A stretch of DNA of 64,000 bases from Candidatus Pacearchaeota archaeon. GTDB taxonomy: Archaea > Nanobdellota > Nanobdellia > Pacearchaeales > DTIR01. The stretch covers positions 110,208 to 174,207 of the forward strand of contig JAGVXL010000001.1 of NCBI GenBank assembly GCA_018303805.1. Reading direction: 5' to 3'. Shown here one piece after another: positions 32,092-34,965 of this stretch. Both the position numbers and the translations under genes were made by a program. Numbering within the stretch: the first letter of the stretch is position 1; every line of letters begins with the position of its first letter. The notes under the pieces were generated by a model, which worked only from the letters and a program-made list of their open reading frames with translations, was not told the origin of the DNA and searched no databases.

Positions 32092-34965
32092 TTGTCAAAG
32101 GTTAACATGCCATCCATAAAAAAGCTGGTGATTCATGGCTTTAAGTCATTTGCCAAGCCGACAGAAATCATGTTTGACAAGACTATGAACACTATTGTTG
32201 GCCCCAATGGCTCTGGCAAGAGCAATGTTTCTGATGCTATCTGTTTTGTCTTGGGCAGATTAAGCATAAAATCTATCCGCGCAGAAAAGGCAGCCAATCT
32301 AATATATAATGGAGGCAAGGAAAACCGGCCTGCAGAAGAGGCAAAAGTAGACATGATATTTGACAATTCTGACAAGATTTTTCCTGGGAATGAAGAGGTA
32401 AAAATAACAAGAATTGTCAGAAGAGACGGGCAGAGCATTTATAAAATAGACAGCAAGACAAAAACAAGACAGGAAGTTCTGGACTTGCTTGCTCAGGCGG
32501 GCATAGACCCTTATGGCTTTAACATTATCCTGCAGGGGGAGATTTCAAGGTTTGTCGAGATGAGAAATGATGAAAGAAGGGGGATAGTGGAGGATATAGC
32601 TGGAATAGGTATATACGAGGCAAGAAAAGAAAAATCCTTGCATGAACTGGAAAGAACAGACGATAGGTTGAAAGAGGTTAACACTGTATTAAGAGAAAGA
32701 ACTGCTTATTTAAGGAATTTGGAAGAAGAAAGGCAGCAGGCGCTAAAATTCAAGAAACTGGAGGAAACAGTGGCTAGATGCAAGGCGTCAATCATCAAAA
32801 AGAAAATTGACGAGAAGGCAAGGGAAAAGGATAGGGTTGAAGATGATATAGCAAAAGAAACAGGGGGTGCAGATAAAATTGAAAGCAATATCATCAAGGT
32901 TGAAGAGGAGATTAAAAAAATAAAAATCAGGATTGAGGATATAAACAGCAGGGTGCAGAAATCTGCAGGAATCGAGCAAACCTCCTTAACAGCCAGCATA
33001 ACCGAACTGAAGGCAGAGATTGCCGGATTAAGCGTGAAAAAGGAGAACTACCAGAACCAGGTTGAGTCCATAGCAAGAAGAAAAGACGAGCTTGAAAAGA
33101 ATATCTCCCGCTTGCAGAATGAAATAGAAGAGATGAGAAAAAGCAAGGGCAAATCCGTAAAGCAAGAAGTGGAAAACAAGAAAAAAACACTCGAGGATTT
33201 TAACGAAAGGAAAGCTAAATTTTACTCCTTGAAATCCGCATTAAGCGTGCTGAATGAACGCTTTAATGACAAGAAGAATGAACTGCAGAAAATTGAACAG
33301 GAATATGAATTTACATTCAAGAGAATTGAGGAAACTGAATCTTTATTAAAATTTAAGGACAGCCTGGAAAAAAATAAGGATTTGCTTGCTGTTTTGAAAA
33401 AGGAAGTTAAACAAAACAGGGAAAAACAGCAGGAAGCTGAAAAAGAAATTATCGAGGCTGAAAAAGAAACGGCAGCTTGCTCAAGGCAGATTTTTGAAAT
33501 TGAAAAAATCAAGAAACAGGTTTCTGAACTGGATATTTGCCCTCTATGCAAGACAAAAATAACATCAGAGCACATACATGATATTGAAAAAGAGGCAGAT
33601 GATAAAATTGCCATAATCAAAGAGATAATTGAGAACATGTCAAGGCAGAAAGGCAGGGCATGGGACTCAAAGGAGGATTCTATTATAATCCTCAAAGAAA
33701 AAGGGGAGGAGATTAATGAAAGGGAGAAGGATATAGTGAGGCTGGAGAGAATAGAAGAAAAGAAACAGCAGCTCAAAAAGCTTGATGAAGGCAAAAAGAA
33801 AATTTCAGATGAAATAGATGACTTAGAAAACAGGAAGAATCAGGCTCAAAAATCCATTTCAGAGTTTGAGGATATAGAGCAGAAATATGAACTGTTAAAG
33901 CTGGAAGTGGATGAGCTTAAAAGGCATGAAGAGATTGACGTTGGCACAGAAATAACATACAAGCTTCGCGAGTTGGAAAAGGTGAAGATTATCATAAGGC
34001 AGATTTCTATGCAGGGAAGCGAATTAGAAAATGAGATACAGGAGATAGGCAAGGAGCTTAGTGGAAAGCAGAAGGAAGCCCGGGAAAAGGAAAAGCAGGA
34101 ACTGGAGATACAAGCAAGATACAAAAAACTGTTTGAAGAGAAAGGCAATCTGCAGGACAAAATCAGGCTTTTTGAATCTGACATGCTGAAAAAACAGAAT
34201 GATGCCAGAATTCTTGAAGGGCAGCTTAATAATTTCAAGATTAAAAAGGCAGAAATAAACGCTCAGATAGAATCATTGGAGATGGAATACAAGGAATTTG
34301 GAACTCTTGAGGTAATCAAGGCTTCAGTTGAAGAACTGCAAAATAGGCTGGAAAATTCACAAAAGCTGCTTGATGTTATTGGCAGCGTTAACCTCAAAGC
34401 TCTGGAGATTTATGATAACATCAAAAGGGATTATGATTCAATTGCATTAAAAGTTGAGCAGCTTGAAAAGGAAAAGCAGGAGATTCTCAGGATAATTGAA
34501 GAGATTGACAAGAAAAAGAAAAACAGCTTCATGAAAACTTTGAATGCTATTAACCAGTTGTTTTCTGATAATTTTTCCAGGCTGAGCACAAAGGGGCAGG
34601 CGTGGCTTGAGCTTGAGAATACAGAGGATGCTTTTTCAGGTGGCTTGGACATAATTGTCAGGATTGCAAAGGGCAAATATATGGATATAAGCAGTTTGTC
34701 AGGAGGCGAGCAAGTGCTGGTGGCTTTGTCGCTTATATTTGCAATACAGGAATATAAGCCATACTGCTTCTATATCTTTGACGAGATTGATGCCGCGCTT
34801 GACAAGAGGAATTCCGAGAGACTGGCTGGCTTGCTTACTGCCTACACGAAAAAATCACAATGCATCATTGTCACGCATAATGATTCCATAATCTCCAATT
34901 CAGCAACCCTATATGGGGTGAGCATGCAGGATGGGGTGAGCAAGATTGTGAGCTTGAAGGTGTAA
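32092..34965 (+). CDS. smc: SMC-family ATPase (957 aa) with a CPLC zinc-hook-like motif at the coiled-coil midpoint instead of a hinge
   Basis: N-terminal head [12 protein letters not shown]...[22 protein letters not shown]. C-terminal head [36 protein letters not shown]...QCIIVTHN, which are SMC-type signature, Walker B and D-loop. Long K/E coiled coils. [13 protein letters not shown] lies at nt about 33540, the exact middle of the gene. No GxxGxG hinge-like globular segment. Confidence 0.75.
   Translation: [957 protein letters not shown]

Follow-up and report, generated by a model that had tools for sequence, protein, structure and literature searches.

Can the hinge of an SMC protein be exchanged in nature for the zinc hook of Rad50? 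This question is raised by a gene in a 64,000-nucleotide stretch of DNA (hereafter, the window) from Candidatus Pacearchaeota archaeon (GenBank assembly GCA_018303805.1, contig JAGVXL010000001.1, positions 110,208 to 174,207 of the forward strand). The open reading frame (ORF) at window positions 32092–34965 on the plus strand starts with TTG and encodes 957 amino acids (aa); residue numbers throughout follow this numbering. An earlier reading, made without database searches (hereafter, the sequence-only reading), had described the product as an SMC-headed protein with a Rad50-like CxxC motif in place of the hinge. The ORF was found to be real, and all three motifs quoted in that reading were present in the translation (residues 37–55, 869–904 and 479–491). 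The evidence presented below indicates that the product is probably a condensin-type SMC ATPase of a DPANN lineage (Pacearchaeota/Nanoarchaeota group), the hinge of which was replaced by a Rad50-type CPxC hook in the clade ancestor.

The following head features were located, invariance being scored in an alignment of 60 sequences.

32092..32601, plus strand: N-terminal head half, residues 1–170, aligning to the Pyrococcus Smc head 5XEI and modelled by AlphaFold2 as a beta/alpha head.
32200–32223, plus strand: Walker A, GPNGSGKS, residues 37–44, with G37, N39, G40, G42, K43 and S44 invariant.
Within 32092..32601, plus strand: Q-loop, Q148, invariant.
34585..34962, plus strand: C-terminal head half, residues 832–957, aligning to the Pyrococcus Smc C-terminal head in 5XEI, 3KTA and 1XEW.
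34696–34710, plus strand: signature LSGGE, residues 869–873, with S870, G872 and E873 invariant.
34768–34803, plus strand: Walker B and D-loop, residues 893–904, with D897, E898 and D900 invariant.
Within 34585..34962, plus strand: H-loop, H929, invariant.

Since Walker A, Q-loop, signature, Walker B, D-loop and H-loop are all invariant, the ATPase is predicted to be active. The SMC equivalog models TIGR02169 and TIGR02168 scored 524.7 bits (in two stretches) and 507.9 bits, respectively; the whole protein missed the cut-offs of both (729.4 and 567.35). Rad50 models with full-length or N-terminal coverage gave 89.3, 70.1, 69.5 and 63.9 bits against cut-offs of 700–1087, and a fifth, NF002244, gave 41.6 bits against 847; sbcC scored 30.8 bits (cut-off 478.5) and RecN 46 bits. 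The ASRP model NF045487 reached 107.7 bits against a cut-off of 300 and matched residues 644–928 only. Among solved structures, the best phmmer match was Pyrococcus yayanosii Smc (5XEI, E = 1.2e-107), with Rad50 heads at about 1e-11. A full-length AlphaFold2 model, built from the 60-sequence alignment with a predicted local distance difference test (pLDDT) score of 76.6, retrieved condensin and Smc heads in Foldseek, including 4I99 with template modelling (TM) scores of 0.88–0.90. The SMC-type heads of the sequence-only reading were thus borne out by profile, sequence and fold: they are orthologous to archaeal Smc, and every ATPase motif is kept.

Between these heads no hinge was found. Pfam SMC_hinge (PF06470) had no match in the window protein or in any hook-type homolog; among relatives with a hinge, the three nearest, P0145, P0147 and P0234, gave 108.5, 115.0 and 81.8 bits, respectively, with the same model, so that the negative result does not stem from poor sensitivity. 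The hinge signature GxxxGG was not found in the window protein either. In local alignment to P0145, a Woesearchaeota SMC of 1159 aa, residues 7–450 matched 2–449 and residues 504–957 matched 712–1159. The 53 residues left between (451–503) stand where P0145 has 262 residues, including the Pfam hinge at 519–636. AlphaFold2 predicted a helix at 425–477, a 14-residue loop at 478–491 and a helix at 492–590, with no globular apex, and the apex fragment 415–555 modelled alone kept this helical hairpin topology with a pLDDT of 91.3. The arms were delimited in the model as follows.

32605..33522, plus strand: ascending coiled-coil arm, residues 172–477, with breaks at 348–359 and 418–424, collinear with the N-terminal arm of P0145.
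33565..34584, plus strand: descending coiled-coil arm, residues 492–831, with breaks at 591–594, 612–617, 735–745 and 764–768, collinear with the C-terminal arm of P0145.

As modelled, the arms are a continuous antiparallel coiled coil without a globular apex. The claim that a globular hinge of about 150 aa is missing was upheld by the negative profile search and by the continuous hairpin. The protein is an SMC ortholog by descent, yet it lacks the globular hinge of the textbook definition and is therefore filed as a variant. Low-confidence breaks of the two arms pair up in the model, 348–359 with 612–617, and 292–293 with 735–745 and 764–768; these pairs may represent the elbow and the head-proximal joint known from other SMCs.

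At the tip of the hairpin, two features were defined.

33523..33564, plus strand: apical 14-residue hook loop, residues 478–491, placed by the AlphaFold2 model, conservation, Pfam Rad50_zn_hook, and profile and Foldseek matches.
33538–33549, plus strand: C483-P484-L485-C486, the sole CxxC of the protein, at relative position 0.50.

The sequence-only reading had put a CxxC at the exact midpoint, near nucleotide 33540, and C483 indeed lies at nucleotide 33538. Between residues 364 and 603, the only invariant positions in the 60-sequence alignment were C483, P484 and C486, with D481, L485, K489, T491 and H494 conserved at 90% or more. All 120 listed homologs (48–77% identity) contain one CP[LVMITFK]C each, at the midpoint, and CPxC is also unique and central in more divergent representatives of 50%-identity clusters. 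Among the fetched loci, every SMC gene that is full-length or includes the apex has it (41 genes, with 36 of the 41 species-representative loci represented among them). Across about 160 full-length or apex-containing homologs, CPxC forms the sole invariant island of the arms.

Likeness to Rad50 hooks goes beyond the cysteines. Pfam Rad50_zn_hook (PF04423) scored 27.6 bits in the homolog P0119, which passes the cut-off of 24.3, and 20.9 bits in P0142, and automatic annotation already marks this family on at least one member (P0119). A single-sequence search with the apex against solved structures returned nothing useful (best RNF4, E = 0.86). With a 25-sequence apex profile, a search of the PDB (177,635 distinct sequences) returned the Pyrococcus furiosus Rad50 hook first and second (1L8D, E = 0.0016; 6ZFF, E = 0.0035). 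This alignment covers 77 of 81 positions and shares T-x-E-H after the CxxC, the P. furiosus stretch being CPVCGRELTDEH. In Foldseek, the apex model retrieved the human Rad50 hook 5GOX at rank 1 and 1L8D at ranks 5 and 8 (TM 0.77–0.79, root-mean-square deviation 3.1–3.3 Å), with Rad50 hooks holding ranks 1, 5, 8 and 18. Both the sequence and the predicted fold of the apex thus resemble those of Rad50 hooks, and the proposal of a Rad50/SbcC zinc hook on an SMC chassis agrees with the SMC heads and with the apex matches in Pfam, profile and fold. The hook may have been captured from Rad50 or may have arisen by convergence; about 50 residues are too few to choose.

Lack of a second cysteine pair in orthologs had been named as an observation that would speak against zinc-hook geometry. 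As Hopfner and colleagues are said to have found in 2002, each protomer has one CxxC and one zinc ion is common to two protomers; a second pair is therefore not needed, and its absence is not a valid refuting test. The Rad50 hook has been described as a single conserved zinc-chelating CXXC in a 14-residue hairpin loop that mediates dimerisation (Tatebe et al., PMC6969161).

The boundaries of the gene were then set as follows.

32107..34965, plus strand: hook-type SMC gene, 952 aa, its exact product present on 9 contigs, with Pfam SMC_N at residues 9–950 (E = 1.4e-50).
32078..32085, plus strand: TATA-like element TTTAAAAA, read from the sequence, 22–29 nucleotides upstream of the ATG at 32107.

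The length of 957 aa given earlier holds for the mechanical ORF from TTG; the likely product is shorter. Translation most likely begins at the ATG at 32107 and yields 952 aa, as judged from the choice of gene callers, from homologs that open with MPxIKKL, and from the TATA-like element. M6 is near-invariant in the 60-sequence alignment, and the homologs begin there. The element is a possible promoter of a leaderless transcript. An identical 952-aa product was recorded on 9 contigs from at least 3 samples, one contig being 268,948 bp long with the neighbours seen in the window. An assembly or frameshift artefact deleting the hinge is excluded by these records, and more than 130 homologs have the same architecture.

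An exhaustive homolog search of 1.84 billion representatives separated two types of SMC. Matches down to about 593 bits were proteins of 946–1023 aa with one aligned stretch and CPxC; from 537 bits down, they were of about 1050–1200 aa with two aligned stretches and the hinge GxxxGG. The two motifs were mutually exclusive among the matches. Named hook-type members belong to Candidatus Pacearchaeota, and the closest relative with a hinge carries the label Woesearchaeota. When species-representative genomes were scanned with patterns specific to close relatives, each assembly with a match gave a single locus. Of the 41 loci, all but one weak bacterial match bear the labels Pacearchaeota, Nanoarchaeota, "Woesearchaeota" or Parvarchaeum. 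In a neighbour-joining tree of 121 head domains, the hook-type proteins together with four apex-less relatives of about 800 aa formed one clade in 196 of 200 bootstrap replicates, and the nearest outgroups were hinge-type DPANN SMCs. Hook-only monophyly was recovered in 0 of 200 replicates, and the apex-less forms are accordingly read as secondary derivatives. The hook state itself is regarded as derived, since the hinge is universal in SMCs. A phylogeny of heads against SMC, Rad50, LmuB and JetC had been proposed as a check: the tree placed the hook clade among hinge-type DPANN SMCs, and the separation from Rad50, LmuB and JetC comes from profile scores instead of from outgroups in the tree.

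Several variants were observed in and around this clade. The apex-less class (P0138; P0140, equal to the PIU75690.1 cluster; P0141; P0144; and locus L046 6045–8480, from PEVX01000029.1) has about 780–804 aa, with arms about 75 residues shorter per strand and 659–679 residues from Walker A to signature compared with 831. As L046 keeps the RNase HII synteny described below, these are positional orthologs. Short-arm SMCs with a normal hinge, of about 800–850 aa (P0222, P0225, P0230, P0234, P0235, P0240, P0249, P0250, P0260, P0265, P0267 and P0268), occupy their own branches in the head tree; Walker A to signature spans 671–713 residues, and the Pfam hinge of P0234 lies at 348–465. They are natural counterparts of engineered "mini-Smc" proteins. 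An intein of about 520 aa with a LAGLIDADG homing endonuclease interrupts several hook-type SMC genes (P0030, P0039, P0096, P0125 and P0131; L028 and L033) at or near Walker A (query residues ~29–43), and many hinge-type relatives of 1330–1800 aa carry such an intein as well. In L035 (4870–7649; from the species-representative genome CAZOGX010000011.1), the hook-type SMC gene consists of two overlapping ORFs with a break at about 6492–6498; either the gene is a frameshifted pseudogene or the sequence contains an error.

Arm length was nearly constant in the hook type. The distance from Walker A to CPxC was 445 residues in 21 of the 34 measurable loci (443–446 in 31), and that from CPxC to the signature was 387 residues in 21 (385–388 in 30). 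Walker A to signature measured 831 residues in 89 of 130 hook-type proteins and 829–833 in 112. Among 63 hinge-type proteins, the 49 of canonical size ranged from 957 to 1068 with no dominant value, and the rest comprised 13 short-arm proteins at 671–713 and one at 836; this contrast is suggestive and not controlled, because the hook sample is phylogenetically narrower. In the CPTC subgroup, L025 and L027 (Pacearchaeota UBA284 and RIFOXYC1_FULL_30_8), Walker A to hook is 451 residues instead of 445 and hook to signature 400 instead of 387, and this matched lengthening suggests that the two arm strands change length together. In the "tuned arm" study of Bürmann et al. (2017), B. subtilis Smc with a P. 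furiosus Rad50 hook sustained normal growth and function still depended on arm length (PMC5344682); near-constant arm length in hook-type SMCs fits this result, and the growth of the chimera makes a working hook-type SMC plausible.

The surroundings of the gene match those of hinge-type SMC genes in related DPANN. In the window the gene for RNase HII stands next to that for SMC, and the same holds for relatives at 77%, 57% and 50% identity; it lies within about 5.5 kb in 27 fetched hook-type loci, as well as in the window and in the apex-less L046. The hinge-type Woesearchaeota SMC locus has the same RNase HII arrangement, and its downstream FixG_C-like gene is common to hook-type loci. The wider window contains housekeeping genes, including those for RNA polymerase subunits, PolB, FEN1, Kae1, the CCA-adding enzyme and a tRNA methyltransferase. 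The window protein is like Smc of Smc-ScpAB (Pyrococcus 5XEI/4I99; TIGR02169) in heads, ATPase motifs, chromosomal neighbourhood and arms, which are collinear with P0145 over about 444 and 454 residues; it differs in having no PF06470 hinge or proximal coil, in its size (about 952 aa compared with about 1150–1190) and in an arm length that is far less variable.

The suggestion that this is the lineage's condensin with a remodelled apex is favoured by the housekeeping context, the RNase HII synteny, the single clade among DPANN SMCs and the intact ATPase motifs. By this account, the hinge and some 90 residues of the coil next to it (262 residues in P0145) would have given way in the clade ancestor to a 53-residue segment with the CPxC hook. 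Two protomers would share one zinc ion through four cysteines, and the zinc-joined apex would act as a constitutive dimer, as the hinge does in canonical SMC. ATP-driven engagement and disengagement of the heads, acting through arms of fixed length, may then lead to DNA entrapment or loop extrusion, by analogy with Smc-ScpAB.

Several points weigh against this account. The isolated apex of the window protein scored 22.3 bits to Rad50_zn_hook, under the cut-off of 24.3. The Foldseek E-values of the apex were weak (best 4.9e-3, none ≤ 0.001), because helical hairpins are unspecific, and the fold ranking is accordingly counted as consistent with a hook and not as proof. Zinc binding and hook-mediated dimerisation are deduced from sequence and a monomer model. 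The tree is a neighbour-joining tree of head domains only. Within the hook clade, four relatives of about 800 aa lack both hook and hinge, so some members do without the hook. No ScpA or ScpB gene was detected by Pfam or with ScpA seeds from B. subtilis and a haloarchaeon, in a search that covered the window, the 10 kb flanking it on either side, and about 50 related loci to a distance of 10 kb from the SMC gene. With the B. subtilis seed, phmmer gave only a spurious 13-bit match to a protein of about 80 aa (L011, 8023–8292), and the haloarchaeal seed had no match in the approximately 50 loci. A regular expression for the archaeal ScpA N-terminal motif found no match, and Pfam at E ≤ 10 detected no kleisin among neighbours that carried no annotation; two of these, of about 250 aa each, lie downstream of the hinge-type SMC gene. 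The smc and scpA genes are often unlinked.

A wider claim is put forward tentatively, as one that may somewhat more easily be wrong than right: an order-level DPANN clade would run its sole chromosome-organising SMC on a Rad50-captured hook, with arm length frozen within 1–2 residues, sub-lineages having later dropped the hook and shortened the arms, and maybe without a recognisable ScpAB.

Of the rival explanations, the one that survives best is that the hook-type protein is a specialised paralog, with a ClsN-like role in domain compaction or a role in repair, beside a canonical hinge-type Smc-ScpAB. The missing kleisin near the SMC gene would suit this explanation, as would the fact that archaea own lineage-specific hook-bearing SMC-related proteins, ASRP/ClsN (PMC9389158). 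Like the window protein, ASRP (ClsN, Sph1/2; NF045487; PMC9389158) are archaeal coiled-coil ABC ATPases with an apical zinc-hook motif, and they are involved in chromosome organisation. They are, unlike it, a separate family with a model of 593 positions, the cut-off of which the window protein fails; its heads are canonical SMC, scoring 525 bits to the SMC equivalog compared with 108 to ASRP. The gene also occupies the RNase HII-linked position of the hinge-type SMC in related DPANN, and the protein belongs to a clade among DPANN hinge-type SMCs with no long separate branch. No second SMC-superfamily ORF was found in a screen that covered the window and the related loci, and the species-representative scan gave one locus per assembly with its patterns specific to close relatives. 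A paralog is therefore unlikely.

Next in order is the explanation that the CPxC loop merely caps the hairpin, as an intrachain structural metal site, a disulfide or a turn, with dimerisation left to arm-arm and head-head contacts. It draws on the models, which are of monomers only, on the persistence of clade relatives of about 800 aa without apical cysteines, and on the "hinge-less" SMCs of marine Actinobacteria, which are without CXXC (PMC12153180). Those proteins (Sussfeld et al. 2025, PMC12153180) resemble the window protein in having SMC-type heads and arms without a hinge; unlike it, they are bacterial and lack CXXC, as their authors state, and the apex-less relatives of about 800 aa are closer to them than the window protein is. 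A cap is nevertheless improbable, given that two cysteines cannot complete a tetrahedral zinc site in one chain and each protein has one CxxC. In addition, the likeness to Rad50 hooks extends over 77 profile positions, taking in the proline that follows the first cysteine and the T-x-E-H further on, and the motif is invariant among proteins otherwise about 42–50% identical.

A functional Rad50, sensing double-strand breaks with an Mre11-type nuclease and mislabelled as SMC, is very improbable. The window protein shares with Rad50/SbcC (1L8D, 6ZFF; PF04423) the CP(L/V)C at a hairpin tip in a 14-residue loop followed by T-x-E-H; such an apical zinc hook would be expected of a Rad50, and the length is in the range of archaeal Rad50 models (872–895 positions). 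Its heads, unlike those of Rad50, score at most 89 bits against cut-offs of at least 700 (models at 64–89 bits, NF002244 at 41.6, cut-offs 700–1087, compared with 508–525 for SMC models), and PDB Rad50 heads match at about 1e-11 compared with 1e-107 for Smc; its arms are SMC arms. Next to the SMC gene, neither the window nor any Pfam-labelled locus has a Metallophos/Mre11 gene, the screen of the fetched loci having been confined to those with Pfam labels. At a distance of about 33 kb, outside the window and about 0.6–1.5 kb beyond its start on the source contig, a gene (L051, 14046–14990) encodes a 314-aa protein of the Metallophos family, the superfamily to which Mre11 belongs; it was rejected as an Mre11 partner, having no NCBIfam match to Mre11 or SbcD.

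The genes downstream of the SMC gene differ from those of its relatives. Pfam assigned a DUF2683/ParE pair at 35047–35563 and an Nmad3 gene at 35618–36271 on the minus strand. The RelE-like toxin-antitoxin pair of the sequence-only reading is DUF2683 plus a ParE/RelE-family toxin, and its AT-rich gene is Nmad3; these are not partners but an insertion specific to the window. Both the pair and Nmad3 are absent from the relative at 77% identity (L001/L007), where Trm5/TYW2 directly follows SMC, and from all other loci, so they are taken as a local insertion and are ruled out as SMC partners. The segment 35010–36271, with the DUF2683 antitoxin-like, ParE/RelE-family toxin and Nmad3 genes, has a low G+C content (0.34) and lies between the SMC and Trm5/TYW2 genes.

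That the protein serves in defence against plasmids or phages as an SMC-like sensor (in the manner of LmuB of Lamassu or JetC of Wadjet), with the toxin-antitoxin pair marking a defence island, is hardly credible: the ParE-family toxin and Nmad3 downstream, weak generic PADLOC matches (mad3 174 bits, AriA 74, LmuB 73, JetC 41) and the CPxCG hooks of many LmuB proteins, themselves coiled-coil ABC ATPases (PMC10586767), stand against a 952-aa protein with invariant D897-E898 and so an intact Walker B, in a housekeeping context, whereas LmuB has about 650 aa, short arms, usually an E-to-Q change in Walker B, and LmuA and LmuC encoded with it (PMC10586767), none of which applies here, and whereas JetC is MukB-like and comes with JetA, JetB and JetD, its best profile matching in the coiled coil only and the neighbours here being RNase HII and tRNA methyltransferase genes. 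No LmuA, LmuC, JetA, JetB or JetD gene is a neighbour, and the DUF2683/ParE pair and Nmad3 had no PADLOC match. No relatives were found on viral contigs of IMG/VR, and plasmid matches were distant smc genes only; on these searches and the PADLOC scores, a mobile-element or defence origin was rejected, and the Lamassu/Wadjet proposal of the earlier reading is not supported.

Two further gene groups were observed in the window. Five tandem paralogs of 154–199 aa at 26412–29216, a cluster kept in L001, have an N-terminal hydrophobic segment like a class III (type IV pilin-like) signal peptide, resembling archaeal pilins or archaellins. A MoxR AAA+/DUF58/VWA (BatA) operon stands beside very large surface proteins of 729–1424 aa with Ig-like (Big_9) and PKD domains (45196–48049, 48248–55233 and 19959–24912); the Big_9/PKD proteins may serve an episymbiotic DPANN cell at its surface or in attachment.

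Full-text literature searches, from which subscription journals were largely out of reach, brought up engineered swaps, ASRP/ClsN, LmuB and the CXXC-less hinge-less SMCs of Actinobacteria; no account of a bona fide SMC that naturally bears a zinc hook was among them. Swaps of hinge and hook have so far been engineered, in B. subtilis (PMC5344682) and fission yeast (PMC6969161), and have been reviewed (PMC7752040). The B. subtilis Smc(Zh) chimera (PMC5344682) follows the same design, the hinge of an SMC having been exchanged for the zinc hook of Rad50; it is artificial and bacterial, unlike the window protein, which is natural, archaeal, clade-wide and evolutionarily stable, with a hook sequence of its own. 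Reviews define SMC by the hinge and Rad50 by the zinc hook (PMC10586767), and Bürmann et al. used hinge alignments to seed their sequence survey (PMC5344682), which could therefore not have picked up natural hook-type SMCs. In the literature searched, what was known before is a laboratory chimera, and what is new here is a natural, clade-wide swap of hook for hinge.

The finding breaks the textbook rule that an SMC has a hinge and Rad50 a hook. Evolution has made the hinge/hook swap of the laboratory and has kept it across hundreds of sequences with near-invariant arm length, a natural variation that supports the "tuned arm" idea. It also cautions that hook-type SMCs are missed or misnamed by homology searches seeded with the hinge and by the equivalog cut-offs. 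Hook-type, hinge-type, short-arm and apex-less orthologs provide a natural set for comparison and complementation, and they bear on the long-running question of whether the hinge is more than an arm holder, namely a DNA entry gate or a DNA-binding site. If the hook-type protein is truly the sole SMC of its clade, DNA binding by the hinge and opening of the hinge gate would be dispensable in vivo, and arm geometry would be the constrained element.

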